Positions 3,662 to 64,000 of a stretch of DNA of 64,000 bases are shown one piece after another. Every line of letters begins with the position of its first letter. Position 1 is the stretch's first letter. Origin of the DNA: an uncultured archaeon (GTDB taxonomy: Archaea > Asgardarchaeota > Jordiarchaeia > Jordiarchaeales > Jordiarchaeaceae); NCBI GenBank assembly GCA_964510585.1, contig CAZECW010000004.1, positions 3,606-67,605 of the forward strand, given 5' to 3'. The position numbers and the translations under genes are program-made. The notes beneath the pieces are model-generated. The model worked only from the letters and a program-made list of their open reading frames with translations, did not search any database and had not been told where the DNA came from.

Positions 3662-6600
3662 GTGATTGAAATGGAAAATAGGAAAAAGGCATCAGCAATA
3701 CTCATAATTTGCGTAATACTCTTCCTTACTACAGCCCTCATAGTTACCAACACAATACCTCTAACACTACCTCCCAGTCAGAATAATTCCCTACAACTGA
3801 AGGAAAACGGAACTTATGCAACAATCCAAATAAATGGAATATATTACAATGTAACTTGGTTTGAAATAAGCAATGAAATCATAAATCAAACAATCGAGAA
3901 CAGCGTCGTAGGCACAAATACTTACTATCTTAACATCACTTGGAACAATTATGTTAATCGTTCAGTTGTCATGTCCTTCAACACCACAAATGATACAATA
4001 TACTTCAATGGTGTCCAACTATACATAGGGTATAATAATTCTCCACCAGCCTTGAGGGTGGAGCTAAGAAACGGAACCCAACAGAACTCAAAATGGGTAC
4101 CAAGCAACGAAACAATACTATATGAGGAATATAGCATTGACAATTTTACACAAGAGGCAAATTGGGCTACTTTGCTAAATGAGACATCTATACTACTTGT
4201 TCCATCACACACTTATTTCTTACTGCTCAGGTTGAATGAAACCACAGGTGATGATAATAGTAGTTATTATTATTGGCGGTGTACTCCAGACACAGGTGAT
4301 GATAGTGATGGTGTCGATGAAGGAATTGCCCTCGCCTTGGAATTTGAAGATGTAAGTGATTTAAATAACTCTGCTTTTTGGGCTGACTGCGCTGATGATT
4401 ATGATTGCTGGATGATTATGAATTTCACAAAGCTTCAATATACCCTAAGCCTACAGCTCCCTGTGAATTGGACGCTGAGTTATCTCATGGTGGATGTTTT
4501 TAACAGCACTGGATCCTTCTTTTACCACATTTCGAATAGTATTTCGGGAAACATTACTGGGGGTACGGGAAGCTTCAACGTTACTCTGCCCGATGGCGAT
4601 AGAATGTGTCTTGCAGTTATAAAATTTACAGAGATACGTCCAGTTTCATGGTTAACTGTAATTGAGGGTACTAGGAATTCTGATGGCTACGCACGAACCG
4701 TTGGAAACATGAGTGAAGCTCAAAGGTTCAGGTTGCCACATGACTCAAATAATCTCTCAATACAAATATTGATACGCAACACGGGTCTGAAGGAGAATCT
4801 CACAGCGGAGATATGGAATGCCACCTTCGTTGAATCAGTGGGGAGCTATAACCTAACTGGGAAAGTGGTTGATTTGGAGGTGCCATACTGGAACGTTACC
4901 TCAGACTATAATTGGCTAACACTCAACTTTGAAGGCTACTTCTCTGAAGGAGACTACTTTCTAGTAATACATACAAAAGATTGGGCGGGCGATCCAAGTA
5001 GCGGTCCATTTTATGATTGGGCAAGTCACACCAGCTTTTACGAGATTCCCCCATCGGAGGGCTACGAAATATGGACTTCAGAAAATAACCACAGCAATTG
5101 GAACTGGCAGGATATGCGAGATCCCTATGGTCACAGGTACTGGCACTGTATGAAGGTGGAGTCGTACAATTCAACAGACACAAGAAACATTAGCGTCTGG
5201 GTTAACGGTAAGCTGGTCGGTGACAATTGGGTGTGGAATGATACCGTTTGGATACCGGTACAAAAGACGCAGGGCGATAATGTTACCTTCACCCTAACAA
5301 GTAATATGGACTTTGAATACAGCTTAGACTATGATATTTATTACTATAATTATACCTATGATTTGAACAATGAAACACAATTCTATGTTAACGATTACCC
5401 TATGAGCAACAGCACCCAAGGCTATTTCACCCAGATCTTTACCAGCAGCCAGCTGGGATACAACAGTAGCACGGGACTGGTCGAACTGACTTTCAAGGCT
5501 TGGAACATAACCAGTAAAGAGTGGATAAGCACAAGCGTTAACGCCACAATAAGCGCCTCAATGTACTACATAGAAAACGTTTCGGTATCATCTGCAACGG
5601 AACTAAACTATACCTATGTACATAGCAGTGACGCTGCCATTTCTCTATCACAAGAATCCCTATACATCGACTACTCCAACCTAAATGTATACGCAGTTAA
5701 CACGGTTCAACTTAATGGAACAACCCTCCATGGCAACTGGACAGACAACACCCTAACCAATAAGATAACAGTACTCAAAAACGCATTTAACGACACACAA
5801 ATAGGACAAGAAATCTTGGCGGGGGACAATGTAACAATCACCGTAAACTTTTACTCTATAGTAAACATTGAATCCCCAACCCTACCCTACATTGGCGAGC
5901 AAGTCACACTAAACATTACAAATGTAGTCAACACGCCCGACTACTTGAACGTGACCATAATAAGACCCAATGGCACAATACAAACACTCAATGGAACCAA
6001 ACTAAATTATGAAAACTGGAGCGTTAATTTCACACCCGAAGAAACTGGCAAATACATCGCATCAATCACCACACAATCAACAGGCGGAAACATAATAAGA
6101 AGAGAAGTAGCAAATCGAAGCGTAGAAAAATACTACTATGTATTCACCGTGTATCAATTAGGCTTGGGACTAAATAAGCCCGACATTGTCGCCGAGGAAC
6201 CGCTAAGCCTAGGAATACCGTATAATTTGCAGATTTGGGTAAAATACTTACCCTTCAACTCCTCGGAAACCCCACAGGTTAATGTAAACAACATAATAGT
6301 TCTCCTGAATGGCAGTAAAACAATAAATGACCCAGTGTTCAATAGTTTAACGGGGTTCTGGGAGCTCACAATAATCTGGACCAGCCTCGGCAACCTAAAC
6401 ATCACAGTGAACGTTACTGATGATAACGGTAGAACTGTCGTCGAAACTTTCATAGTCCAAGTGGTCTACCCAAAACCACCCTCACCTATACCAATATTAT
6501 CATTAATGACAACATACGCAGCCATAGGTCAGTTTGATATAGACACACTGGCAAGAATCGCCACCATCGTATTCTGGCTACTAATAATAGTTCTCATCTT

Positions 6601-6664
6601 TATACGCGTCTTTTATCCAGACACTCTAATCAAAATCCACAAAAAACTACTGAGAAAAACATGA
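3662..6664 (+). CDS. Large secreted or surface (S-layer-like) glycoprotein with an N-terminal signal/anchor and a C-terminal TM anchor.
   Basis: 1000 aa. N-terminal hydrophobic segment ASAILIICVILFLTTALIV. About 55 N-x-S/T sequons. C-terminal hydrophobic helix IATIVFWLLIIVLIFI followed by a basic tail KIHKKLLRKT. Confidence 0.6.
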   Translation: MIEMENRKKASAILIICVILFLTTALIVTNTIPLTLPPSQNNSLQLKENGTYATIQINGIYYNVTWFEISNEIINQTIENSVVGTNTYYLNITWNNYVNRSVVMSFNTTNDTIYFNGVQLYIGYNNSPPALRVELRNGTQQNSKWVPSNETILYEEYSIDNFTQEANWATLLNETSILLVPSHTYFLLLRLNETTGDDNSSYYYWRCTPDTGDDSDGVDEGIALALEFEDVSDLNNSAFWADCADDYDCWMIMNFTKLQYTLSLQLPVNWTLSYLMVDVFNSTGSFFYHISNSISGNITGGTGSFNVTLPDGDRMCLAVIKFTEIRPVSWLTVIEGTRNSDGYARTVGNMSEAQRFRLPHDSNNLSIQILIRNTGLKENLTAEIWNATFVESVGSYNLTGKVVDLEVPYWNVTSDYNWLTLNFEGYFSEGDYFLVIHTKDWAGDPSSGPFYDWASHTSFYEIPPSEGYEIWTSENNHSNWNWQDMRDPYGHRYWHCMKVESYNSTDTRNISVWVNGKLVGDNWVWNDTVWIPVQKTQGDNVTFTLTSNMDFEYSLDYDIYYYNYTYDLNNETQFYVNDYPMSNSTQGYFTQIFTSSQLGYNSSTGLVELTFKAWNITSKEWISTSVNATISASMYYIENVSVSSATELNYTYVHSSDAAISLSQESLYIDYSNLNVYAVNTVQLNGTTLHGNWTDNTLTNKITVLKNAFNDTQIGQEILAGDNVTITVNFYSIVNIESPTLPYIGEQVTLNITNVVNTPDYLNVTIIRPNGTIQTLNGTKLNYENWSVNFTPEETGKYIASITTQSTGGNIIRREVANRSVEKYYYVFTVYQLGLGLNKPDIVAEEPLSLGIPYNLQIWVKYLPFNSSETPQVNVNNIIVLLNGSKTINDPVFNSLTGFWELTIIWTSLGNLNITVNVTDDNGRTVVETFIVQVVYPKPPSPIPILSLMTTYAAIGQFDIDTLARIATIVFWLLIIVLIFIRVFYPDTLIKIHKKLLRKT

Positions 6665-6797
6665 ATCCCCTCATTTTTTATTAATTGATAATGATATAAG
6701 AGATTTTGCACCCTCCTAATTTTGAGTCTGGGCCTTAGCCAATGATTCCGTAGTCCCGTACCTATATTTTTGGAGGGTTCAATAGAGAAAAGGAGGA

Positions 6798-7008
6798 ATG
6801 GTGCGGAGGACGAGATGTGTTCAGGGGGTAGCAGGCTACCACCGCCTTTGAACTCGTGTAGGCCTATGTGAACTCCCAGATAACTGGGGGTTTCTACGCC
6901 ACAGGAGCTCTGATACGCGAGTGATTGGAAATCGCAAACCTCAGTCCTGCTCCATGCCAGTCAAATCCCTGAGGGGACGACATTTGACCTGGCTCGGAAA
7001 CCTCCGCA
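6798..7008 (+). ncRNA. Candidate structured ncRNA of about 210 nt closed by an 8-9 bp terminal helix. Family not identified.
   Basis: TGCGGAGG at 6800-6807 pairs perfectly with CCTCCGCA at 7001-7008. There is an internal hairpin CCTCAG…CTGAGG. It lies in a 780-bp non-coding gap. Strand is unknown. Confidence 0.3.
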
Positions 7009-7434
7009 CATATATTGACAAAATAGGATTACACTGAACCAGTTTTTATAAGTTTCTATGATAGGTAACGATATGATGCGTTATGCCTGTATTTTTCGTG
7101 TTTTAAGGGGGATAGCATATTATTAAAAAATTTTTGGAACACCATTTTTTAAGGGGAAAGTTCAAAAGGAAAATGTATAAAAATTATAGTGCATATCCAT
7201 TTTGTGTGGTAGAATTCGTCTGAGCGTAACAATTTATTTAGGGTATTTGGAATGTGCAGGGATTTCCGAGTGGTCAATACCCAGCTGTGGTTGGCTATAG
7301 GAGCTGGGCTTAGGACCCAGTGGCGTAGTGGTGTCGGTCTGTTTTGGTGGCGCCGCGTAAGCCTTCGCGTGTTCGAAAAGAGGCATCAGATTGATGCAGC
7401 TCGATAGTCACGCTCCCTGCACCAATTTTTAAAA

Positions 7435-8304
7435 GTGGGTATGTGCTCTGTTTATTTGGACTGTGTAGTCTTTATTTTTTGGGGTTTTTGTTTGATGGTG
7501 GTTGTTTTGGATAAGCGTATTGATAGGATTGATCGCAAGATTGATAAGGGTAGGATTAAGAAGAAGCGTTCTGAGGATTTGGAGACGACGCAGGCGGTTA
7601 TTGATAAGAGGACTGCTATGATTTTGTATGATTTGATTAATAGGGGTTATTTGGATAGTATGAAGGGGGTTGTGGCTTCAGGTAAGGAGTCGAATGTTTA
7701 TTGGGCGACTGCTGAGGAAAATGGGGTTACTCGAGATTTGGCGGTTAAGATTTATAGGACTTCGACTATGGATTTTAAGAGGATTTGGGTTTATATTCAG
7801 GGGGATCCTCGCTTTACCAAGGTTAAGAGGGATACGCGTTCCATTGTTTATGCGTGGGCTGAGAAGGAGTTTAAGAATCTTAGGTTGGCGGATGAGGCGG
7901 GTGTTAGAGTTCCTAAGCCCGTTGTTTGGAGGGGTAACGTTCTTGTTATGGAGTTTATTGGTGAAAATGGAGTTTCTGCTCCTAGGTTGAGAGAGGCGAT
8001 GGTTGAGGATCCGGAGCCTGTTTTCAAAATTGTTTTTGATTATGTTGTTAGGCTTTATGAGAAGGCGGAATTGGTGCATGCGGATCTTAGCGAGTATAAT
8101 ATTTTGTACTGGGATGAGCCGGTAGTAATTGATGTTTCTCAAGCGGTTCTCCTAAGTCACCCTTTAGCATTAGATTTTTTGGCTCGTGATCTAAAGAATA
8201 TTTTAAGATATTTTTCAAGTTTAGGGGTGGAGGTTCCCTCCCTAGAGGAAGCATATAAAAAAGTTACGGGTGAAGAATTGGTTTGGAGACAAGAGAGTTT
8301 ATAA
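7435..8304 (+). CDS. rio1: RIO-type serine/threonine protein kinase (Rio1).
   Basis: GKESNVYW nucleotide-binding loop, catalytic VHADLSEYNIL, and a metal-binding D in IDVSQAV. Length and order are typical of archaeal Rio1. The true start is probably a few codons downstream of 7435. Confidence 0.85.
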   Translation: MGMCSVYLDCVVFIFWGFCLMVVVLDKRIDRIDRKIDKGRIKKKRSEDLETTQAVIDKRTAMILYDLINRGYLDSMKGVVASGKESNVYWATAEENGVTRDLAVKIYRTSTMDFKRIWVYIQGDPRFTKVKRDTRSIVYAWAEKEFKNLRLADEAGVRVPKPVVWRGNVLVMEFIGENGVSAPRLREAMVEDPEPVFKIVFDYVVRLYEKAELVHADLSEYNILYWDEPVVIDVSQAVLLSHPLALDFLARDLKNILRYFSSLGVEVPSLEEAYKKVTGEELVWRQESL

Positions 8305-9183: not shown

Positions 9184-9287
9184 AATTTCAACCTTCTTTT
9201 AGTCCCTTAAGAATACGTTTCCGTTCTTTTAAAATTTCCTAAAGGACTGATGGGAATTGTTAGGTTTCCTAGAGGAGGTGTCGATTA

Positions 9288-10355
9288 TTAAGTTTCTGGT
9301 GAGAGGATGGTTATTTCTTCGTCTATTTTTATTGCTTGTACTATTTCTCCTTCTTTAAGGTTTGTGTGGGTTTGCTCCCTTTTTATTTCGGTTATTTCGT
9401 ATGTTTTTAGGTCCATTAGTTGGATGGTGTCTTTAGTTTTGGAAATTATGAGGTATTGTTTTGTTTCTGGTTTCCAGCTTTGTATTTCTGATTCCCAGAA
9501 GTCCTTGTACTGTATGATTTGTTTTTCTCCGGTTTTGGGGTTTTTTCCTATTATGTTGCCTTTTTCTATTTTTTCGAATATGAGGGTTTTGTCCATTAAT
9601 TGTATTATCTCGCCTGGCGTGAAGGAGGGGAGTCTCACTGATACTGATGTTGTTCCTTTCTTTTTTCCATCCTTCATTCCGGACAATTTGAACGATTCTT
9701 GGATGTTTGCTCCCATTTGTTCTTTTGTGGATGTGGCAATGTTTTTCGCGAGTCCAGTTGAGCTAACGTAGAGGTCGAAGCCTTCTTTTTTCTCCTTTAT
9801 TTGGGGTATGTACTCGTCTTTGTATCTTTCAGATTCGAGGGCTTTGTCTATTATTTGGTAGATTTGTTGTCTCTCTTCTTCGCTTATTCTGCCTCTTAGC
9901 CCTCTGAACTGGACTATGGCCTCGTAGGCGCCTTGCTTTTTCTTGGTGCAAATGCCGCAGGGTGAAGATTCGAGTTTTATGGTGACTTTGACTGTTTCAC
10001 TGATGGTAGTATCGTTTTTTTTGGCGGTTATTAGAATTGGAACATCGATTTTTCCTGTTAATTCCACTTCTTCTGCTATTTGGGGTTGTATAATTATTTC
10101 AAATTCTGGTGAGTGTTTTATGAAACGCGGTGAGTTCTGCTCTATTACTATCTCTAAGAATTCATTCGGGTTAAAGCTATTGGTTTGCACCCACTTTTTG
10201 GAAAGCTTGTAACTGTAACAGTGTGGGCAAATTCTCACTTCAAACTCATGTTTAACAGTGAATGGGGGATTCTTCTTGAGGTAACATGATTCACAGAGGT
10301 TTTCAATCAGAGGGGCATCTGTTTTTCCACATAGCGCACAGAATCTTTTTGTCAT
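9288..10355 (-). CDS. nmd3: NMD3-family 60S ribosomal export/biogenesis protein homolog.
   Basis: N-terminal CxxC…CxxC…CPHC zinc-finger cluster (FCALCGK…CESCY…CPHCYSY) and about 355 aa, matching archaeal Nmd3. The 3' half of the gene has sharply A/C-biased codons. Confidence 0.7.
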   Translation of the reverse strand: MTKRFCALCGKTDAPLIENLCESCYLKKNPPFTVKHEFEVRICPHCYSYKLSKKWVQTNSFNPNEFLEIVIEQNSPRFIKHSPEFEIIIQPQIAEEVELTGKIDVPILITAKKNDTTISETVKVTIKLESSPCGICTKKKQGAYEAIVQFRGLRGRISEEERQQIYQIIDKALESERYKDEYIPQIKEKKEGFDLYVSSTGLAKNIATSTKEQMGANIQESFKLSGMKDGKKKGTTSVSVRLPSFTPGEIIQLMDKTLIFEKIEKGNIIGKNPKTGEKQIIQYKDFWESEIQSWKPETKQYLIISKTKDTIQLMDLKTYEITEIKREQTHTNLKEGEIVQAIKIDEEITILSPET

Positions 10356-16344: not shown

Positions 16345-17715
16345 ATGGCACAAACACAAAAAGGAGATAAGTACGAAGTCAAAGACCTAAAACTAGCACC
16401 AGGCGGACGAGCAACAATCGAATGGGCAGAATCAAGAATGCCCGTACTTATGCAAATAAGAAAAAGATTCCAAAAAGAAAAACCACTCAAAAACACCATA
16501 GTAGGAGCATGCCTCCACGTAACAAAAGAAACAGCGGTACTTGCAAAAACTCTAAAAGCTGGAGGAGCAGAAGTCTACCTTTGCGCCTCAAATCCCCTAT
16601 CAACACAAGACCATGTAGCCGCGGCACTAGTAGAAGAAGGAATAAACACATTCGCTTGGAAAGGCATGGACTACGAAGGCTACTACCGAGCAATAGCCAA
16701 CGTTATTAAAGGAGAACCGAACATCACACTAGACGACGGCGCCGACCTAGTATCAACCCTAATCAAGCTAAAAAGAGGAGAAACTGGCGAGGAAATCAAA
16801 ATAGTCAAGAAAATTCTCGGAAGCCGTACAGACTGGGCGGACAAAGTATGGGCCGGAGCCGAAGAGACCACAACCGGCGTAATCCGCCTCAGAGCCATGG
16901 CAAAAGATAACGTGCTATTATACCCAATTATAGCTACAAATGATACCCCCACGAAATGGGAAACATAAACACCACCCGTGTTTAAGCCCAAATTTGACAA
17001 CTTGTGGGGAACTGGACAAAGCACCATAGACGGTATACTAAGAGCAACAGCAGACCTCATCGCGGGCAAAATTTTTGTAGTTGCAGGATACGGTCACTGC
17101 GGTAGGGGTGTAGCGCTAAGAGCAAAGGGACTAGGAGCGAGAAGAGTCATCATCTGTGAAATAAATCCCCACCGAGCACTAACAGCCGCCTTAGAGGGCA
17201 TGGAAGTAATGCCCATGAGCGAAGCCGCTGAGGTAGGAGACATTTTCGTAACCGCCACGGGATGCAAGAATGTTATAAATGCTGAACATATGAAAAAGAT
17301 GAAAAACGGGGCAGTAATGTGTAACACAGGCCACTTTAATGTGGAAATAAATATACCTGATTTGGAAAAAATAAGCGTCAGCAAGAGAGAAATAAGACCA
17401 CTAGTCGATGAGTACACACTGGAAGATGGAAGAAAAATCTATCTGCTCGCCCAAGGCAGGCTCGTGAATCTTGCATGTGCCGAAGGACACCCAAGCGAAG
17501 TTATGGACATGAGCTTTTCGGATCAGGCTTTGGCTGTGGAGTGGATTGTTAAGAATAAGGATAAGCTGTCTGGGATGGGTAGTGTGGTTTTGGATATTCC
17601 TGAGGAGATTGATAGGACTGTTGCAGAGTTGAAGTGTAAGGCTATGGGTCTTAGATTGGATGTTTTGACCCCAGAACAGGAAGCGTATTTGTCAGGTTGG
17701 GCTGAAGGAACCTAG
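16345..17715 (+). CDS. ahcY: Adenosylhomocysteinase (S-adenosyl-L-homocysteine hydrolase), interrupted by an in-frame TAA at 16966-16968 inside a 30-nt insertion.
   Basis: Colinear with SAHH throughout: EETTTGV, the NAD-binding [18 protein letters not shown]. Where archaeal enzymes read TKYLFDN, this sequence reads [16 protein letters not shown]. Both halves are in the same frame. Confidence 0.85.
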
Positions 17716-17864
17716 TTCTTACTTTCCTATTTTTATTTTTGTTTGTGTTTTTGGTGGCTTTTTGTGGGTCTTTGGCTTTTTGGTTTTTTGTTATTGCGGA
17801 GTTCAGTCTTTATTGGGGCTTTTTTCTCTTTAAAATTGATAAAGAAGCTCTAGTTGGCTTGCCT

Positions 17865-39187: not shown

Positions 39188-39356
39188 ACAACACTAAACC
39201 TTCACATTCGCAAAACTACTAAAACACACACATAAAAGATTTATAAGCATTCCCAGAAAAACCGCCCTAATACACCCCTAAAAAATAGAAGACACCAAAG
39301 AGAAAAAGACATCAGAGTTAGTAAAAGACAAAGTAGAAGGTGAAAATAGAGGGATT

Positions 39357-39557
39357 GGTCCCGCAGGCCGGACTTCCAAATATAGTGTATGGCACACTAT
39401 AAACTTTGAACCAGCGACGTTGGGGCTGAGTACTATATGCACCCAGTTATCCCGGTGTCTGAGTGCCTACTGGGGTAAGCCACACTTAACGAGTGCAGCT
39501 CTACAGCCGGGCACTCTAGCCAGTCTGAGTTACTGCGGGTAAAGTTACTGCGGGACC
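39357..39557 (+). ncRNA. Candidate structured ncRNA of about 201 nt with a perfect 10-bp terminal helix. Family unassigned.
   Basis: GGTCCCGCAG (39357-39366) pairs with CTGCGGGACC (39548-39557). Internal hairpins ATAGTGT-atggc-ACACTAT and GAGTGCC…GGCACTC. An 11-nt direct repeat GTTACTGCGGG occurs twice. It is a GC-rich island in a 480-bp intergenic gap. Confidence 0.4.
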
Positions 39558-39665
39558 TTTGAAGCGGCTTTTTCAGGTATGATTCCTAGATGTTTATTGT
39601 TAGATAAATTTTTCGTATTCGCTGATTTGAGTGTATATTTTTTTAAGTGGTTGGGGGATATGTTT

Positions 39666-53936: not shown

Positions 53937-55244
53937 ATGGAGCTGGATTTGTCCAGAGAAGAATTGTTAAACCTGCAAGAAAAGAAATTCAAGCGCACAA
54001 TGGAACTGGCATTTAAAACACCACTATACAGCCAAAAATTCAAAGAAGCAGGACTAAGCCTGGCAGACATCACAAGCTTAAAAGATTTAGAAAAGTTACC
54101 ATTCTCCAGCAAACAAGACATCGTCAAGGACTATAGAGCAGCAATCGCAGACCACAGTAATTTAGCAGTGTTCCACACCACCTCAGGAACATCAGGAATC
54201 CCCACAGTTGTAGGCTACACCAACAATGATGTCGAAACACAAACCATCAATGAAGCCCGAAACCTGCTAACAGCAGGATTCAAAAAGGGAGACATAATAA
54301 TTAATACTACACCCTATGGCATGTTTTTTGCGGGCGTTTGTATTCATGACGCTATAAGGAGAATTGGGGCTGTTGTGGTTCCTTCTGGTAAATTGGCGAG
54401 CAGTAGGCAGCAGGTGGATATGATTCATTTTTATCGCCCCACCGGAGTTATTGGCATTGCCCAGTTTATTTTGAAGTGGGCTTCCCTGTATGAGGATATG
54501 TTTGGAGAGGATCCTCGGGAAAGTTCTCTTAATAGAGGGTATGCTCTTGGGGAGCCGGTTCCAGAGGGTAAAAGAAAACGCATAGAGGATGTTTGGGATA
54601 TTGACCTTAGAATTGGGTATGGTTTGACGGAGGTAGGCAGTGGGGGAGAGTGCGAAGAGAAAAATGGTGTGCATTGGCAAGAGGATCTCTCCTTGGTGGA
54701 GGTTATCGATCCAGACAATAATGAGAGGGTTGCGGATGGGGAAAGAGGGGAGCTAGTTTATACTACTATTTCTAGGACTGGCACTTTGGCCATTAGGTTT
54801 TGTTCAAGGGATAGTTCCTTTATAGTGAGTGGTGACTGCTCCTGCGGTCGTATAACGCGGAGAGTTATGCCTCCAGAGTTTCGTTTGGATAGTTTGATTA
54901 AGATTAAGGGAACCCTTACCAGTCCTTTCGCCATTGATTCAGCGATTTTCAGTTACGAGGGTGTTAGAGATTACCTGGTGGTGGTGAGCGAAGATTCATC
55001 GGGTCTTGATCGCGTGGATGTTTATATTGATTCAGACTCCTTCACGCCTAAACAAATTGAGAGTTTATATGATCGATTTGGTGGTAAGGTTTGGTTTAAC
55101 CCCTCATCAGTAAAAATAGTGGAGAAGGATAGTATTCCAGTAATTGGTAGGAAGGGGAAGAAAATTATTGACCTTAGAACCGAAGCGGACTATGGGGATG
55201 AACTTAAAACCTTTCTGGAAAAGTATGGGGAATCCAACCAATAA
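53937..55244 (+). CDS. Phenylacetate-CoA ligase / coenzyme F390 synthetase family adenylating enzyme.
   Basis: FHTTSGTSGIPT adenylate-forming core. 435 aa. PaaK-like architecture. Confidence 0.75.
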   Translation: MELDLSREELLNLQEKKFKRTMELAFKTPLYSQKFKEAGLSLADITSLKDLEKLPFSSKQDIVKDYRAAIADHSNLAVFHTTSGTSGIPTVVGYTNNDVETQTINEARNLLTAGFKKGDIIINTTPYGMFFAGVCIHDAIRRIGAVVVPSGKLASSRQQVDMIHFYRPTGVIGIAQFILKWASLYEDMFGEDPRESSLNRGYALGEPVPEGKRKRIEDVWDIDLRIGYGLTEVGSGGECEEKNGVHWQEDLSLVEVIDPDNNERVADGERGELVYTTISRTGTLAIRFCSRDSSFIVSGDCSCGRITRRVMPPEFRLDSLIKIKGTLTSPFAIDSAIFSYEGVRDYLVVVSEDSSGLDRVDVYIDSDSFTPKQIESLYDRFGGKVWFNPSSVKIVEKDSIPVIGRKGKKIIDLRTEADYGDELKTFLEKYGESNQ

Positions 55245-57679: not shown

Positions 57680-57816
57680 AGGAACCACTTCAAACCCTTT
57701 ATATGTTTTACCAAAAAATTTCAAGGTTTTTATTGGTAATTTCACATTCCTTCATAAAAGCATTACCCCAAAATCAAATGAAAAACAAAATAATCCCAAA
57801 AAAGGCTACAAACTCT

Positions 57817-58560
57817 TTAAATTATATCCAAAATTTCTGAAATATTATTCACCGTATAGTCCGGCTTCTCATCATCACAAGTTGGCTCCCTCTCAGCGTG
57901 TAAATCCTTCCTCACACGTATAGTAATCGCCCCAATGGATTTCGCCCAAGCAAAATCATTCCTGGGATCATCACCAACAACGAAAATTCTCTTACCAGTA
58001 ACGGGTTGACCCAAATCCTCCTCCAAACACTGAATAAGCCTCTCAAGAAACTCGGGAGCTGGCTTACATACACCTAAACGCTCCGAAGAAAACAAGAAGC
58101 GATAGTGCTTCCCGGGCTCCAGCCCGAAAAGTTTCATCTTCAACTCAGTTTCCTCGTCCTCATTATTGGTGGCAATCACAACAATCGACTTCCTATTCAG
58201 CATCTCAAGCGTTTTATGAGTATCCGGATACGGCCTTGCACGAGCAACAAAATGCTTCCAATAAAAATCGTGAATCTTGTCAAGAAACTCTGAAGCAAAC
58301 CTAATCCCATTATTCTGCTGCACCTTCTCAAGAAATAACCTCAACCTAATCCTCTTATTATGCCTCCTCGGCTTAAGAGGATACAATTCATAATGCTCCT
58401 TCTTAGCCTGCCTGTAAAACTGCTCCATCTTTTCCAAGCTAACCCTCGAACCACAACTCCTACTAGCCTCCTGACAAGTCAACTCAAAAACCTTCCTAAA
58501 CGCCTCTTCCTCAGGAATAAGCGACAAACCCAAAGTACCATCCATATCAAAAATAACCAC
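57817..58560 (-). CDS. HAD-superfamily hydrolase.
   Basis: FDMDGTLG motif I with a GTG start at 58560, VVGDDPRNDFAWAKSIGA motif IV. The long upstream extension of the ORF is an artefact of the stop-free A/C tract. Confidence 0.7.
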   Translation of the reverse strand: MVIFDMDGTLGLSLIPEEEAFRKVFELTCQEASRSCGSRVSLEKMEQFYRQAKKEHYELYPLKPRRHNKRIRLRLFLEKVQQNNGIRFASEFLDKIHDFYWKHFVARARPYPDTHKTLEMLNRKSIVVIATNNEDEETELKMKLFGLEPGKHYRFLFSSERLGVCKPAPEFLERLIQCLEEDLGQPVTGKRIFVVGDDPRNDFAWAKSIGAITIRVRKDLHAEREPTCDDEKPDYTVNNISEILDII

Positions 58561-58599
58561 AGTATCCCCGTCCGACTGAAAAACGCCAGTTCCCTTCTT

Positions 58600-59700
58600 C
58601 GAGAAAACCACCGTAAACACCCTAAACAATTCTACAAGGCACCAAACACAAAAAAGACACAAAAAAATTAGCAAAATATCCTTATAAGCATTTGTATACC
58701 AAAAACCAAACCCGACCCACACCCCACAAAAACCCAAACACACAACTACGCTACAAGACCACAAAACAACCAAAAGCACGAAAACATAACAAGTACACAT
58801 AACCAAACAACACAAGAAAAATGAAACACAACACACCCCCCAACAAACTGAACCACACAAAACAAGAACCCAAAACACCCAATTTCCAACCCCAAAAAGA
58901 AACAATACAAAACCCCCAAAAACCAACACTCTCCTCCCAAAACAAAAAACATCAAACACACCACCAAAAACAAACTGCCAAAAACACCAATCACCAAAAA
59001 ACAGTAAAAAACAAAAAAATAATCACCAACACCAAAACACCACAAAAACCAAAAATAAGGAAAAACCATTGGGAGACACCGTGTACCCTAGGATACTAAC
59101 ACATGACATCCCAGGATAGAGCGACACGCCCTTGCCTCAGCCATGCTCTCTCATACCAGGGAAGCACCGGCGTCTCCCAAAGCCGCTGTAGTCTACCTGG
59201 GTAGGCTCCCCAATCATAGAAAGGCAACCGCCACACTCCTGAAGAAGCCCGTCGAGTAGACATTATCACGGCAACAAATGTAGCCCAACCCCTTGCCCTA
59301 AACTTCATCCCAACTAAAAAAGAAAGTCAGCCAGTCCTCAGAGGTGGGCCAACAATAACAAAAACAAAACAAACTAATGAAACTTTCGGAAAACAAAACA
59401 ACCAACCAGACACAACCCACCAAAAACAAAACACACAAAAACCACGAAAAACCCACCACAAAAAGTTTAGACAATAAAAACCCCGCCCCAAACCCGAAAA
59501 GCGAAAACAAAAACACACCACCACAAAAAACTAGGCAGCATCCCCGCTCCATTCACAGGCAGCCCCATACGAAAAAGGCGCCCCAACCCATCCCAGCCCA
59601 CCTCCTTTAGTTATTCTTCTGGGTCTACCCCCTAACCTGTTAGCAGAATTGGCTCCCCACACTTAACCAACTTATCACCTGACATTCACGCAACCCCTCA
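58600..59700. repeat. Low-complexity tract composed almost only of A and C on the + strand, nearly devoid of stop codons in any frame, interrupted by a GC-rich unique island (about 59070-59330).
   Basis: Long runs such as caaaacaaccaaaagcacgaaaacataacaag… and accaaaaacaaaacacacaaaaaccacgaaaaaccc. The island contains the stem GGGAGACACCG / CGGCGTCTCCC. Confidence 0.7.
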
Positions 59701-59848
59701 TAAAGCCTTGCCTCAGAAAAAGGGAAAAAGATATAGGAAGGGAAGAAAAAATAAGTTTTATACCTCCCCTGGGGGCAAAGGAAGGGAAGACACAGCCAAC
59801 CATGCAACGAAGCAAATAAATAAAAAAGTTGAAGAAGAGGAAACAAAA

Positions 59849-61570
59849 ATGACACAACCAAAACAAAAATGGAAAAAAGAATTCGACAGCATTGTTGTGT
59901 GTTGTTTTGTTGGCGACGTTGACGGAGACGGAAAAAACGAAATAATAACAGGAAACAAGGACGGAACACTTATGGTCTTAAGCGGAGAAGGAGAACAAAA
60001 ATGGAAAAAAAAATTCGACGACAGTGTTTTGTGCTGTTTTGTTGGCGACGTTGACGGAGACGGAAAAAACGAAATAATAACAGGAAGCGAGGACAGTACA
60101 CTTAGGGTCTTCAGCGGAGAAGGAGAAAAAAAATGGAAAAAAGTATTCGGCGGCAGTGTTGTGTGCTGTTTTGTTGGTGATGTTGACGGAGACGGAAAAA
60201 ACGAAGTAGTAGCAGGAAGCGGGGACAGGACACTTAGGGTCTTCAGCGGAGAAGGAGAACAAAAATGGGAAAAAGTATTCTTGGACGTTGTTGAGTGTTG
60301 TTCTGTTGGCGACGTTGACGGAGACGGAAAAAACGAAATAATAATATATGGCGGGGACGGAAGACTTAGGGTTTTCAGCAGAGATGGAGAACAAAAATGG
60401 AAAAAAAAATTAGGCGGTGTTCGGTGTTGTTTTGTTGGCGACGTTGACGGAGACGGAAAAAACGAAATAATAACAGGAAGCGAGGACAGTACACTTAGGG
60501 TCTTCAGCGGAGATGGAGAACAAAAATGGAAAAAAGTATTCGGCGGCGAGGTCTGGTTTTGTTCTGTTGGTGATGTTGACGGAGACGGAAAAAACGAAGT
60601 AGTAGCAGGAAGCAAGGACGGAACACTTATGGTCTTAAGCGGAGATGGAGAACAAAAATGGAAAAAGGTATTCGGCGGCGAGGTCTGGTTTTGTTCTGTT
60701 GGCGACGTTGACCAAGACGGAAAAAACGAAATAATAACAGGAAACAGAGACAAGGCACTTATGGTATTAAGCGGAGATGGAGAACAAAAATGGAAAAAAG
60801 AATTCGACAGCGAGGTTTTGTGTTGTGTTGTTGGCGACGTTGACGGAGACGGAAAAAACGAAATAATAACAGGAAACAAGGACGGAAAACTTATGGTCTT
60901 AAGCGGAGAGGGAAAACTAAAATGGCAAAAAGAATTCGTGGACGATGTTCGGTTTTGTTTTGTTGGCGACGTTGACGGAGACGGAAAAAACGAAATAATA
61001 ATAGGAAACGAGGACGGAAAACTTAGGGTTTTCAGCGGAGAGGGAGAACTAAAATTGAAAAAAGTATTCTTCGACGTTGTTGAGTGTTGTTCTGTTGGCG
61101 ACGTTGACGGAGACGGAAAAAACGAAATAATAATAGGAAACAGGGATCAGACACTTAGGGTATTCAGCAGAGAAGGAGAAAAAAAATGGAAAAAAGAATT
61201 CGGCGACGTTGTTTTGTGTTGTTCTGTTGGCGACGTTGACGGAGACGGAAAAAACGAAATAATAATAGGAAACGGGAACCAACTTATGGTTTTAAGCGGA
61301 GATGGAGAACAAAAATGGGAAGAAGTATTCTACAACAGTGTTTTGTGTTGTTTTGTTGATGATGTTGACGGAGACGGAAAAAACGAAGTAGTAGCAGGAA
61401 GCGAGGATGGAACACTTATAGTCTTCAGCGGAGAGGGAAAACTAAAATGGCAAAAAGAATTCGGCGGCGAGGTTCGGTGTTGTTTTGTTGGTGATGCTGA
61501 CGGAGACGGAAAAAACGAGGTGGTAGCAGGAAGCAGTTTCGGGACGCTTGAGGTTTTTGTTTTTCCCTAG
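59849..61570 (+). CDS. FG-GAP/integrin-alpha-like beta-propeller repeat protein with 13 tandem repeats of about 42 aa and no signal peptide.
   Basis: Repeat consensus VxCCFVGDVDGDGKNEIITGxxDGTLxVxSGEGEQKWKKxF, with a DxDxDG Ca-binding-like loop. The start is taken at the internal ATG (MTQPKQKW). Confidence 0.7.
   Translation: MTQPKQKWKKEFDSIVVCCFVGDVDGDGKNEIITGNKDGTLMVLSGEGEQKWKKKFDDSVLCCFVGDVDGDGKNEIITGSEDSTLRVFSGEGEKKWKKVFGGSVVCCFVGDVDGDGKNEVVAGSGDRTLRVFSGEGEQKWEKVFLDVVECCSVGDVDGDGKNEIIIYGGDGRLRVFSRDGEQKWKKKLGGVRCCFVGDVDGDGKNEIITGSEDSTLRVFSGDGEQKWKKVFGGEVWFCSVGDVDGDGKNEVVAGSKDGTLMVLSGDGEQKWKKVFGGEVWFCSVGDVDQDGKNEIITGNRDKALMVLSGDGEQKWKKEFDSEVLCCVVGDVDGDGKNEIITGNKDGKLMVLSGEGKLKWQKEFVDDVRFCFVGDVDGDGKNEIIIGNEDGKLRVFSGEGELKLKKVFFDVVECCSVGDVDGDGKNEIIIGNRDQTLRVFSREGEKKWKKEFGDVVLCCSVGDVDGDGKNEIIIGNGNQLMVLSGDGEQKWEEVFYNSVLCCFVDDVDGDGKNEVVAGSEDGTLIVFSGEGKLKWQKEFGGEVRCCFVGDADGDGKNEVVAGSSFGTLEVFVFP
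59880..61540 (+). repeat. Intragenic tandem DNA repeats of about 126 bp, 13 copies, highly similar at the nucleotide level.
   Basis: The same stretch gttggcgacgttgacggagacggaaaaaacgaaataataacaggaa recurs many times. Confidence 0.85.
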
Positions 61571-62335: not shown

Positions 62336-63313
62336 TTAGGTTGAGGGGCGAAGGGTTGGTGTTCGGGAATGTGCAAGGGATGTTCTCCCTGTCTGTTTGA
62401 GTTTTAGTCCTGCAGCTACCCTTCTCTTTATGTTTATGGCGGTGGCTGTGTGAAGCTGTTGGGCTTCCACCTTGCTTAGACCACGATATCGCGCCTTTCC
62501 CGCTCCATGTCTCTTTGCCTCGGAGATTGTTCCCTCAACTGGGCAGCGCCGCTTAAGCTTCTTCTGGTACTTTACGCTCTTCTCCTTCTTCCGGTACTTG
62601 TCTATTATGGGGGACAGCATCACCTGGATCTCAAGGCTTCTTCCCTCTTTGGATTTTGTGCACAAGCCGTAGTTTGGGCAGTCTAGGCACTGCTTTCCGA
62701 AGTGAAAGATTAAACACTCGTCAAGCCCCTCTCCCTTCCTCTTTACTCTAATGCTTCTCTTCCCCGCAGGGCAGAAGGCAACTTCTCTCTTAACGTTCAC
62801 CTTGAAGTCCTTCCTCTGGAACCCTTCCTTCCCGCGGGTGTCAGACTTCACACGGCCCACGATTTCAACTCCTATCGTCCTGCAGAGCACTATCCCCTTA
62901 GCGCTCGTGTATCCCATGTCCGTTGTAAGTTCATTTGCATCAATCTTCTCCTTGGCGTCTTTGGCTATTTCGTACAGCGCTTCGTAGTCGGGTCTGTCGG
63001 CGGTGTTGAGCATGCAGGTAACTATGAACGGTGTCTCATTTTTCCCGGGGATGGTTTCGCAGATGTGGGCCTGGTATCCGGGGTTTATCTTCTCTCCCCT
63101 TTTTCCCACCTTGGCGTCGGGGTCGTGTGGGCTGACCATTTTCCTCTTTATCTTGTCCTTAACCTCCACCTCGCCTCCTTCCTTTAGGTCGTATACCTCA
63201 TTGAAGGCTTGCTCTAGAAGTTGGTACTCATCTAGATTTTCAAGATTGTTTTTCCGGCAGGTTTCGAGAATCCGGTGGGCGTGTTCGCCGTATTCTTTGA
63301 GCCGTTTTTTCAT
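62336..63313 (-). mobile_element. IS5/IS1182-family DDE transposase.
   Basis: HDPDAKVGKRG (the DPDAR-type motif) and C-terminal SEAKRHGAGKARYRGLSKVEAQQLHTATAINIKR, characteristic of this family. GC-rich relative to the host. Confidence 0.7.
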
Positions 63314-63423
63314 GGTCTCCCGGCTCTTGGCGAAGGGCTATGCATTACCCATAACTTTTAAGGGTGTTGGAGGGGTATCTGAGTGTGCATATAATGTTCA
63401 CAATTAAGCTTAGGTGAAAAGCG

Positions 63424-64000
63424 ATGTTACCATGGGTTGAACAAGAGCTTCAAGGCGTAGATCTGGGCGATGCCCGTTTAAACAGCCGCCTGATGAAGCT
63501 GGTTAATGATTTTGCCACCAATCCGAATGCCAGCATCCCTCAAGCCTGCGGAGAATGGAGCGCCACAAAGGCCGCCTACCGTTTTTTCGACTCAGAACGG
63601 ATCAAACCAGAGGATATCCGCGCCGCTCACATCCAAAGCACCATCCAACGAGTGAAGAAACATGAAACCATCCTCCTTGTACAGGACACCACCAACCTAG
63701 ATTTCACCCACCATCCCCACACCAAAAACATAGGATACCTCGACAATGTCTTCCAGAAAGGGTTAAAGGTCCACTCCACCATAGCAGTAACACCAGATGG
63801 AGTCCCCCTAGGACTAATCTGCCAAGAGGTTTGGGTCCGCGACCCCCCAGAACCTGGGGAAGAGACACCAGAGAGACAAACGCGACACCAAAGACAAGGA
63901 AAGCCAGCGCTGGCTAACAGCTCTGCAAAACAGTCAGGACGCTGTGCCAGAGGAGGTTCACATAATCATCGTGGCCGACAGGGAGGCAGACATCTACGAC
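63424..64000 (+). mobile_element. IS4-family (Tn5-like) transposase, running off the window end, with an apparent frameshift near 63885.
   Basis: Frame 1 gives MLPWVEQELQG…LGDARLNSRLMKL…ACGEWSATKAAYRFF…LLVQDTTNLDF…GLKVHSTIAVTPDGVPLGLICQEVWVRD. The continuation KESQRWLTALQ…VHIIIVADREADIYD is in a different frame. Confidence 0.7.

Follow-up and report, generated by a model that had tools for sequence, protein, structure and literature searches.

A very probable gene for an undescribed structured RNA, set in strongly strand-biased DNA at a rearranged rRNA locus of a Jordarchaeia archaeon

The A/C-rich region at positions 58600–59700 of the 64-kb stretch of archaeal DNA analyzed here (the window) is best explained as the tail of a rearranged rRNA locus of a hot-spring Jordarchaeia/Freyarchaeota (Asgard) archaeon. 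The G+C-richer island within this region is, with high confidence, a minus-strand gene for a previously undescribed structured RNA of ~290 nt (59061–59352), hereafter X, and the A/C composition on either side is probably where a strong one-strand mutation bias, present also in the silent codon positions of neighboring genes, reaches its local maximum. We consider it probable that the composition of the flanks is mutational and not functional. We are tentative, at somewhat less than even confidence, in attributing the bias to deamination of the non-template strand behind heavy transcription, and a role of X in ribosome biogenesis or in a ribonucleoprotein (RNP) is a still more doubtful proposal. 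On balance, we lean toward the explanation taken as a whole, which combines the X gene, mutational flanks, a deamination-based cause and an RNP role.

On the plus strand, the A+C content is 87.2% in 58650–59070 (90.1% in the core, 58698–59069) and 81.2% in 59330–59600 (84.8% in 59345–59541), compared to 62.5% for the island between them. The island itself has a G+C content of 52.9% (59070–59330), against ~42% for the window. The initial annotation of this DNA was thus right to describe A/C-rich flanks around a G+C-richer island, but its wording “almost exclusively A and C” is too strong for sequence that is 81–90% A+C, with 54 G or T per 421 bases in the first tract. The 400-nt maximum of A+C is 0.8775 here, compared to at most 0.72 in the remainder of the window (outside 57800–60000), and 85% A+C in 100-nt windows is attained nowhere else in it. 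The region had also been taken for a roughly 1-kb stop-codon-free tract with every frame open, whereas we find 9–15 stop codons per frame in all six frames of 58600–59700, and 1–6 per frame in the A/C sub-tracts alone. Similarly, its left end (58660–58697) is not A/C-only, but contains a TATA-like sequence, CTTATAAG, that is kept upstream of the adjacent HAD gene in relatives. The mirror-image G/T tract reported elsewhere in the window is real (17716–17833, 81% G+T). Tandem or dispersed repeats were rejected as the origin of the A/C tract, as the repeat matches behind it are only weak and compositional, and inverted repeats are absent from 58500–59800.

A covariance model built from nine lineages matches 59061–59352 on the minus strand at 320.7 bits and finds a single X copy per locus, with no paralogues in the window by either BLAST or the covariance model. 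Conservation of the island in relatives, on which the initial annotation had made its reading depend, is seen in every relative obtained, with 78–96% identity in X where the flanks are unalignable. X remains 78–84% identical even where the HAD protein is only 65–73% identical and the flanks are unalignable. Compared to the relatives L009 and L010, X is 96–97% identical, and this 3–4% divergence, set against 10–14% in the A/C tract and 9–11% at HAD third codon positions, means that the sequence of X is conserved above the neutral rate, evolving 3–4 times more slowly than its flanks and synonymous sites. This slow evolution, together with the compensatory changes described below, argues against a degenerate remnant, which had been one of the readings put forward for the island. 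The presence of 1-nt indels between relatives in turn shows that X is not coding. We note that X is intact in the window lineage despite its separation from the 23S rRNA gene. A metagenome pattern scan for remoter homologues recovered only the three lineages already known, and no 23S or X lies upstream of a more divergent HAD relative (41% identity). We found no relevant description in the literature on noncoding RNAs of Jordarchaeia. As a separate observation, the window holds further GC-rich islands of a similar kind, including one at 39340–39560, and two other G+C-rich islands had no matches in Rfam at either gathering or permissive thresholds.

X consists of three stem-loop domains comprising 71 predicted pairs, with 98.4% of cells paired and compensatory (both-side) changes at 13 of the 71 pairs. 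None of 500 shuffles equaled the observed pairing or covariation score, and slid controls were 41–46% paired. The helices contain 165 G·U cells, such that they work on the minus strand only (the same helices are 80.8% paired on the plus strand). Covariation analysis against related genomes, which had been suggested as a check, thus supports a minus-strand RNA. Domain 1 (59281–59351) is a hairpin built on an 11-bp basal helix, within which lies a candidate kink-turn (helices 1–3, 92–100% paired, three double-change pairs); domain 2 (59182–59272) is a long hairpin with invariant CUUCUUCAGGA, UGGCG, UUGCCU and UGAUUGGGGAG (helices 4–8, 95.6–100% paired, four double-change pairs); and domain 3 (59071–59178) is a rod-like hairpin with invariant CCCUGGUAUGAGAGA, GUUAGUAU and AGGGUACACGG (helices 9–12, 96.7–100% paired, six double-change pairs). 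The 11-bp helix GGGAGACACCG (59071–59081)/CGGCGTCTCCC (59168–59178), singled out in the initial annotation, exists and forms the outer helix of domain 3. Read on the minus strand, its one A·C mismatch becomes a G·U pair, and L009 and L010 have A-U at this position. In the putative kink-turn of domain 1, the GA of CTGACT (59325–59330) would pair with GGGATGA (within 59303–59312). The GA and GAUGA letters are invariant, and the pattern GA-CC ... GG-(G/A)AU-GA, a short motif, is kept in all lineages.

Directly upstream of X on the minus strand lies a BRE/TATA-like block, CCGAAAG-TTTCATTA-G (59374–59389), at which relatives carry TTTCAATA. The block, CCGAAAGTTTCA(A/T)TAG, ends ~22–24 nt before helix 1 of X, and the 28 nt around it are near-invariant, with three variable positions across 13 sequences. 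In each relative, GAAAGYTTNAANA is found once at this site, with one further occurrence upstream of 23S in L010. The block presumably corresponds to the published archaeal BRE/TATA promoter consensus, and based on this match, we read it as the putative promoter of X. The predicted start of X is near 59351 and its predicted end is the oligo-T run at 59061–59065, with T runs following domain 3 in every lineage. With the promoter-like block directly upstream and the oligo-T run directly downstream, the mature RNA most likely excludes the flanks. The proposal of a transcribed structured RNA flanked by CA-rich spacers therefore stands with respect to a conserved structured RNA gene, but has the strand wrong: as X is on the minus strand, its flanks are G/U-rich, not C/A-rich, in the sense of the RNA.

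SRP RNA, RNase P RNA and other Rfam families had been named as possible identities for the island, and none of them matches. No matches to the Rfam 15 covariance models were obtained at gathering score across the whole window; at E ≤ 10, the region 58500–59800 gave only a chance match to SNORD23 (14.6 bits, compared to a gathering score of 64), and the X homologues of L014, L019 and L020 matched nothing in Rfam. Individual candidates were likewise rejected. The CR-I (GAGGAAAGUCC) and CR-V (ACAGAAnnCGGCUUA) sequences of RNase P RNA are both absent from the transcribed part of X, and GAAAGUUUC at 59380–59388 is located in the promoter-like block, upstream of the predicted start. ARAGORN found no tRNA either with or without intron settings, and GTTC is absent from X. 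X has no properly spaced C/D pair as expected for a box C/D guide sRNA, and the ACA after domain 1 that an H/ACA sRNA would carry is missing in L015, L022 and L025. More generally, the longest complementarity of X to the rRNA operon is 10–11 nt, no better than in shuffles, which speaks against a guide RNA.

X can be compared with several known systems. Like the stable RNA genes that accompany archaeal rRNA operons (5S, distal tRNA), it is directly downstream of 23S and co-oriented with it, is G+C-rich relative to the genome and strongly structured, and is followed by oligo-T. It differs from these in having no 5S, tRNA, SRP or Rfam match even at E ≤ 10, and in its ~290-nt length, with three consecutive hairpins, no helix joining the 5′ and 3′ ends, and no T-loop. 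In some methanogens, the 7S RNA gene adjoins rRNA operons. G+C-rich islands reportedly mark ncRNA genes in A+T-rich (hyper)thermophiles, a principle ascribed to Klein, Misulovin and Eddy (2002), and X is similar in being a structured RNA in an island of 53% G+C in a 42% genome; this is, however, a principle of detection and not a family, and is silent on function. The arrangement in domain 1, in which a 2-bp stem, GAU and GA are opposite GA and a stem, fits the consensus of the kink-turn (L7Ae-binding) RNAs, which include box C/D and H/ACA sRNAs and archaeal RNase P RNA, whereas X has no C/D pair with guide spacing and is without the P4/CR-I/CR-V sequence of RNase P RNA. Finally, with respect to pre-rRNA processing stems (leader/trailer helices with bulge-helix-bulge sites), the 16S leader of relatives is A/C-rich and complementary to a 16S trailer that is G/U-rich, and pairing is also seen between the flanks of 23S, showing that in this organism an A/C tract can partner a G/U tract. 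Around X, in contrast, both flanks have the same polarity (G/U-rich in sense) and there is no inverted repeat in 58500–59800, such that the flanks cannot form a processing stem around it.

In all other lineages, the order is 23S, 117–310 nt, X (in the same orientation), 190–460 nt, and the HAD gene, and the window lineage has lost the link between 23S and X through a rearrangement involving an FG-GAP gene and an IS element. The FG-GAP repeat protein gene (59849–61570, plus strand, Pfam FG-GAP) and an IS transposase (~62336–63900) together stand in place of 23S; a DDE transposase also adjoins the FG-GAP gene in L001, and the FG-GAP junction is common to the independent assemblies L001, L002, L028 and L032. 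Between this gene and X, the spacer at 59390–59545 (minus-strand sense; 85% A+C on the plus strand) aligns loosely, at ~57–65%, with the 23S-to-X spacer of L009 and L010. The similarity ends near 59545–59600, beyond which the relatives have 23S rRNA and the window has sequence upstream of FG-GAP. Judging from this alignment, 59390–59545 is probably a remnant of the 23S rRNA gene trailer. On the other side of X, the non-coding spacer at 58698–59060, which is 90% A+C on the plus strand and G/T-rich with many T runs in sense, is 86–90% identical to L009 and L010 with 17 gap columns, near the divergence of HAD third positions (9–11%). In other lineages, the G+T content of this spacer ranges from 0.54 to 0.83. 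It is followed by a block at 58676–58697 (minus strand) that contains the TATA-like sequence at 58681–58688, is kept in L009 and L010, and has related sequences (ACTTATAAAG and ACTTATTAGG) at the same place in L011 and L015. This block would be the probable promoter of the HAD-PfkB-MtnA gene string, of which the HAD-family hydrolase gene (57817–58620, minus strand, Pfam Hydrolase/HAD_2), with 83% G+T at third codon positions in sense, is the first downstream of X.

The same bias runs through these genes. Taking K3 as the G+T fraction at third codon positions, values along HAD are 0.92, 0.87, 0.80 and 0.78, and reach 0.30 at the MtnA end, such that the bias fades over 4 kb through three genes. 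Plus-strand K3 is 0.80 at 54.4 kb and falls to 0.08 by 58.6 kb, across genes on both strands. Across lineages, spacer G+T and HAD K3 covary, from 0.54/0.47 to 0.87/0.83. The A/C tracts, which are non-coding, diverge about as fast as synonymous sites. The synonymous HAD differences from a low-bias to a high-bias lineage comprise 63 A>G or C>T changes compared to eight in reverse, with 11 vs 2 transversions in the same low- versus high-bias comparison, such that A>G and C>T changes predominate on the rRNA-sense strand. Strand-specific substitution bias, which had been offered as an alternative to an RNA gene, therefore holds for the flanks together with the RNA-gene reading of the island. We note that A/C transversions are over-represented among the tract substitutions (15 of 38), which could be due to either selection on composition or misalignment of low-complexity sequence.

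Across the window, the third-position profile is a sawtooth, with abrupt A/C-to-G/T jumps followed by near-linear declines over 1–4 kb whatever the gene orientation, and with the G/T-rich strand always running 5′ to 3′ away from the jump. Jump sites lie at about 1.2, 7, 9.3, 17.5, 39.3 and 54.3 kb. Silent sites span 2% to 98% G+T within a few kilobases, the standard deviation of K3 between blocks is 0.173 (0.071 in shuffles), and the profile is matched in L001, L022 and L025. In relatives, G/T tracts follow 16S and 23S too. Several jumps coincide with probable stable-RNA genes (the rRNA operon, X, a tRNA-like gene and the island at 39340–39560), and G/T tracts with T runs are also seen after the intron-bearing tRNA-like gene at 7257–7431 and the AdoHcyase gene. 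One sharp switch, which four lineages share to the codon, falls inside an AMP-binding gene (~54318), where neither an RNA gene nor a conserved TATA-like element is present. The idea of a symmetric, cryptic TATA element at this site (~54300) was rejected, as the A+T-rich codons are not kept in L022 while the switch is. For 16S, 23S, X and the HAD gene string, it is the non-template strand that is G/T-rich, but this correspondence fails for the 16S leader, which is A/C-rich in sense, for the 3′ ends of genes at convergent gene pairs (A/C-rich in sense at 10 of 10 pairs), and for the AMP-binding gene over its first 125 codons.

Taking these data into account, we propose that X would be transcribed from its own BRE/TATA-type promoter (59374–59389) and would end at the oligo-T run (59061–59065), and that, in view of its position, G+C content and probable kink-turn, it would most likely be a housekeeping RNP RNA linked to ribosome biogenesis and, presumably, abundant. 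The flanks would be unconstrained spacer, with functions limited to T-run terminators and the HAD promoter. The minus (rRNA-sense) strand would have been pushed toward G+T by a lasting excess of C>T and A>G, the signature expected of deamination on a strand that is often single-stranded, and this would most likely be the non-template strand left behind by very heavy transcription of the rRNA and X genes in a thermophile. Jordarchaeia have been described as thermophilic (PMC9723677). The window resembles single-strand deamination gradients in that C>T and A>G are both in excess on one strand, and in that the silent-site bias is graded with distance from where it starts, rising in jumps and declining linearly. 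It differs from them in its scale (kilobases, rather than a whole genome or megabases), in its near-saturated amplitude (2–98% G+T at third positions), and in having jumps between convergent genes and inside a gene. One-strand asymmetries are known from the H strand of vertebrate mtDNA, the non-template G+T excess and 5′-proximal asymmetry of mammalian and human genes, respectively, and replication “N-domains”. A literature search on local keto skew in archaea found nothing relevant, and we know of no kilobase-scale archaeal strand-bias domains of this kind.

The sawtooth profile is also what would be expected if the skew arose not through transcription but where DNA synthesis or strand displacement begins locally at fixed sites (either origin-like or primed by R- or D-loops), with the displaced strand remaining single-stranded longest near the start. 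Such a process would account for jumps and 1–4 kb declines that disregard gene orientation, for an intragenic jump kept in position across lineages, and for the constant 5′ to 3′ direction of the G/T-rich strand away from the jump. Against this, the jumps occur every 5–20 kb, and to our knowledge no known archaeal origins are as dense; several also lie at the probable stable-RNA genes listed above. We consider this explanation unlikely, albeit the strongest of the rivals. Resection of double-strand breaks was rejected as a cause of the skew, as it predicts the opposite polarity at the jumps. Somewhat less likely again is selection on the tracts (G/U-rich in sense), either as fail-safe terminator or insulator zones with many oligo-U signals, or as pairing-inert spacers that guard against misfolding of X. 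The G/T tracts with T runs after 16S, 23S, X, the tRNA-like gene and AdoHcyase, and the enrichment of A/C exchanges among tract substitutions, are in line with such selection. However, the same bias is found at synonymous sites as far as 4 kb downstream, weakening with distance, the tract has diverged at the synonymous rate and shows many indels, and L011 and L016 keep X, HAD and the T runs, yet have ordinary spacers (G+T 0.54–0.58).

With respect to X itself, the other lineages always have it downstream of 23S and in the orientation of 23S, which would also suit a structured, cis-acting element within the pre-rRNA 3′ trailer, such as a signal for 23S processing or termination, and not an independent gene. 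We regard this as improbable given the T runs between 23S and X, the invariant BRE/TATA-like block directly upstream of X, the lack of complementarity between X and the 23S flanks, and the separation of X from 23S in the window lineage, where the window-specific helix differences from L009 and L010 that were inspected against more distant lineages keep their pairs. Far less credible than any of these, and close to negligible, is that the tracts encode low-complexity proteins, whether K/N/T/Q/H/P-rich on the plus strand or, on the minus strand, membrane-like peptides that are V/F/G/L/C/W-rich and among which a longer N-terminus of HAD would count. ORFs of 60–107 aa do occur in several frames, and gene callers have lengthened HAD to 327–353 aa in L001 and L002. 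None of these ORFs, including those within 58698–59060, has a Pfam match, however, and they are interrupted by 1-, 2- and 4-nt indels between close relatives and are not kept in L010; the tracts carry stop codons in every frame, and the HAD motif DxDGT comes directly after the conserved start region. The overlapping ORFs are thus spurious, as the initial annotation had judged them to be.

We therefore retain an independent X gene within mutationally shaped flanks. Further, and with appreciable reservation, we suggest that Jordarchaeial genomes may carry position-fixed, kilobase-scale domains in which C>T and A>G changes have pushed one DNA strand close to G+T saturation, and which start from discrete sites and spread in both directions from stable-RNA genes (such as the rRNA operon and X) and from the conserved intragenic point, with X as a lineage-specific RNP RNA of ribosome biogenesis. 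If true, this would mean that DNA at defined sites of an Asgard genome becomes single-stranded unusually often or stays so unusually long, through R-loops or strand-displacement synthesis, and would be a prokaryotic counterpart of the promoter-proximal skew and R-loop domains of eukaryotes, or of replication N-domains. Asgard archaea are the closest known relatives of eukaryotes. Judged from the comparative sequence evidence, X would add to them a well-supported, unannotated family of structured RNA that adjoins the rRNA genes and may bind L7Ae. Rfam and ARAGORN together found no RNA genes across the 64-kb window, which indicates that the RNA complement of such genomes is under-annotated. The A/C tract, in turn, points to a mutational regime that is unusual in its strength and fine spatial structure: it skews codon usage, gives rise to spurious ORFs, leads gene callers to false N-terminal extensions, and could provide a sequence-only read-out of which DNA is habitually single-stranded in an uncultured organism.

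The archaeon belongs to the class Candidatus Jordarchaeia (alternatively labeled Freyarchaeota) of the Asgard archaea, and the Jordarchaeia have been described as thermophiles living in geothermal systems (PMC9723677). The HAD-family hydrolase encoded next to the GC-rich island is 96–97% identical to proteins from contigs of three Jordarchaeia MAGs, and several independent assemblies contain near-identical versions of the region. The island region sits between two diverging genes, namely HAD (57817–58620, minus strand; followed by genes for a PfkB kinase and an MtnA/IF-2B-like protein) and the gene for an FG-GAP repeat protein (59849–61570, plus strand). The FG-GAP gene is made of ~13 near-identical 132-nt repeats (80–87% identical), with a repeat content that varies by strain, and adjoins a DDE transposase IS element of higher G+C (~62336–63900; 2017–3600 in the relative contig L001).

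The initial annotation described 58600–59700 as a stop-free tract of only A and C around a GC-rich island. The arrangement stands, with the flanks being A/C-rich rather than exclusively A and C: plus-strand A+C is 87% in 58650–59070 (90% in 58698–59069) and 81% in 59330–59600, around an island of 53% G+C. A+C of at least 85% in 100-nt windows is found nowhere else in the window. The helix quoted in that annotation is present (59071–59081/59168–59178), as is one mirror-image G/T tract (17716–17833). The region is not, however, stop-free, as all six frames contain 9–15 stops each over 58600–59700, and each A/C sub-tract has 1–6 per frame. The ORFs of the tract gave no match to protein families, and we reject them as coding because every frame is broken by 1-, 2- and 4-nt indels between close relatives.

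Compared with the close relatives' contigs L009 and L010 (~92% overall DNA identity to the window), the island is 96–97% identical and the left A/C tract 86–90% identical, with 17 gap columns, while HAD third codon positions differ by 9–11%; the tract thus evolves at approximately the silent-site rate, and the island 3–4 times more slowly. In more distant contigs, fetched through HAD homologues of 65–73% identity, the island was found in all cases, at 78–84% identity over ~325 nt, with both of its sides unalignable in every one.

The consensus structure from an alignment of 13 sequences comprises 12 helices (71 base pairs) arranged as three stem-loop domains in succession, with 98.4% of the paired cells complementary and both-side changes at 13 pairs. 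None of 500 shuffles matched the observed pairing or covariation score, and sliding the partners by 1–3 columns reduced pairing to only 41–46%. The helices contain 165 G·U cells, and read on the plus strand are 80.8% paired; moreover, the A·C mismatch in the initially quoted helix becomes G·U on the minus strand and is A-U in L009 and L010. The RNA (henceforth X) is thus encoded on the minus strand. A covariance model trained on nine lineages hits each locus exactly once (286–334 bits) and matches nothing further in the window.

A 28-nt block 5′ of the first helix, CCGAAAGTTTCA(A/T)TAGTTTG..., is near-invariant in all aligned sequences, with three variable positions. It matches the archaeal BRE (cRnaAnt) plus TATA consensus and is thus a putative promoter, with the TATA-like part ending ~22–24 nt before the GGCCC at 59351; in L010, the 23S gene is preceded by a similar GAAAGCTTAAAAA. 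T runs stand right behind the last helix in every lineage, and oligo-T is a termination signal in archaea. Together, the promoter-like block and the T runs predict an RNA that starts at 59351, stops at about 59062 and is ~290 nt long.

In every lineage except that of the window, X is co-oriented with the 23S rRNA gene, which ends 117–310 nt before it, and HAD follows 190–460 nt further on. In the window's lineage, the expected 23S site is occupied by the FG-GAP gene and the IS element, and similarity to the relatives stops near 59545–59600. This junction recurs in independent assemblies, showing that the rearrangement is real; the IS element may be responsible for this event, in which the rRNA genes were removed. 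That X is intact despite the loss of its 23S neighbor argues for independent expression.

In the Rfam scan that the initial annotation had proposed, neither X nor its homologues matched any Rfam 15 family, even at E ≤ 10. A tRNA identity was ruled out, X has neither RNase P core sequences nor boxes arranged as in C/D or H/ACA RNAs, and it is no more complementary to the rRNA operon than shuffled controls are. Domain 1 carries a conserved pattern, GA by a 2-bp stem opposite GG-(G/A)AU-GA, that would fit a kink-turn, which we consider a lead and not a demonstration. X represents a new family of structured RNA that, within reach of our scans, is confined to the Jordarchaeia.

The tracts flanking X are G/T-rich in the sense of the RNA, and tracts of the same type lie 3′ of the 16S and 23S genes in relatives and, in the window, 3′ of a tRNA-like gene and of the S-adenosylhomocysteine hydrolase gene. 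Such tracts could be mistaken for terminator zones. However, the bias extends into coding sequence: the sense-strand G+T fraction at third codon positions (K3) runs through 0.92, 0.87, 0.80 and 0.78 along HAD, ~0.6–0.75 in PfkB, and from 0.63 to 0.30 in MtnA, a smooth 4-kb gradient that peaks at the tract and is repeated in the contigs L001, L022 and L025. Spacer G+T and HAD K3 also covary by lineage, from 0.54/0.47 in L016 through 0.58/0.57 in L011 to as much as 0.87/0.83 for the window, and X, HAD and the T runs are kept in all of these, including the low-bias L016 and L011. Between low- and high-bias lineages, synonymous sense-strand differences are A>G or C>T in 63 cases versus 8 in reverse (synonymous transversions, 11 versus 2). 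The gradient, the lineage covariation and this spectrum point to mutation rather than function, and we hold with fair confidence that tract composition is mutational in origin.

Deamination of single-stranded DNA depletes both amino bases of one strand, as in the mitochondrial H strand and transcribed mammalian DNA, and strand asymmetry of this origin is a known type of process; in the archaeal literature, we found no report of such asymmetry on a scale of kilobases and at a strength this close to saturation. A sense G/T bias would result if the non-template strand were deaminated in the wake of heavily transcribed RNA genes, a reaction that a thermophilic geothermal habitat would accelerate. 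We hold this cause with much less confidence than the mutational origin, in light of the mosaic across the window, an intragenic jump, convergent 3′ ends and the 16S leader; the main rival is local strand-displacement synthesis. In 50-codon blocks, plus-strand K3 is as low as 0.02 and as high as 0.96 (standard deviation 0.173, versus 0.071 when shuffled), and 42 of 350 blocks are extreme (≤0.2 or ≥0.8), versus at most 1 in shuffles. The profile jumps abruptly from A/C to G/T near 1.2, 7, 9.3, 17.5, 39.3 and 54.3 kb (sharpest at ~1156–1327, 6665–7434, 9210–9320, 17469, 39188–39665 and 54318) and then declines gradually, whichever way the genes are oriented; some of the jumps fall at probable stable-RNA genes. 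From every jump, the G/T-rich strand points away in its 5′>3′ direction, a polarity that fits divergent transcription or origin-like strand displacement; break resection would give the opposite polarity and was rejected. In the AMP-binding gene (53937..55244), third positions are almost all A/C before, and almost all G/T after, a switch that takes a few codons (54290–54340; ...TATGGC/ATGTTTTTTGC...) and falls at the same codon in four lineages (window, L011, L016, L022) with saturated silent sites, even where the lineage's bias is otherwise weak, and no conserved promoter-like element was found at the switch. The sense strand is A/C-rich at the 3′ ends of 10/10 convergent gene pairs in the window, and likewise in the 16S leader.

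Complete Freyarchaeia genomes are reported to carry introns in 92–95% of tRNA genes, often several and at unusual positions (PMC11291895), which explains the failure of standard tools to detect RNA genes in the window. The segment 7257–7431 (plus strand), missed by ARAGORN and Rfam, resembles an intron-bearing tRNA gene: its acceptor strands are GCAGGGA...TCCCTGC, with ACCA directly after them, and the T arm reads GCGTG-TTCGAAA-(about 30-nt insert)-CACGC. A G/T-rich tract (7435–7522) comes next, and then a RIO kinase gene that opens with 96% G+T at third positions. Two further G+C-rich islands in long intergenic gaps (6780–7010 and 39340–39560), both at skew jumps, have long terminal helices, GTGCGGAGG...CCTCCGCAC and GGTCCCGCAG...CTGCGGGACC, and no Rfam match at E ≤ 10; they may be further unannotated structured RNAs. 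The S-adenosylhomocysteine hydrolase gene (16345–17715, plus strand), along which third-position G+T rises from 0.12 to 0.88, comprises two in-frame ORFs split by a TAA at 16966, inside a ~30-nt insertion as compared with the conserved motif NDxxTKxKFDN; the split could be a protein-gene intron, a pseudogene or an error.

The 16S genes of relatives have a long A/C-rich leader and a G/T-rich trailer (1–81 and 1620–1700 in L010; 1–436 and 1938–2200 in L015), the 16S-proximal parts of which are complementary and form a processing stem; the L015 leader opens with a (CACAA)n run and includes a TATA-like GTTATATTAAAAC. The 23S of some relatives is ~900 nt longer than the Rfam model (L010, 4362–8271; L015, 4156–8074), and the extra L010 sequence, with a 195-aa ORF (6587–7174), is probably a homing-endonuclease intron. 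Automatic gene calls (L001, 6083–7066; L002, 1627–2688) extend HAD by 60–90 residues into the G/T tract, creating a false hydrophobic N-terminus. Because DNA made of G and T alone has no stops and can specify no residues other than V, F, G, L, C and W, such false N-terminal extensions are a general annotation hazard in these genomes.
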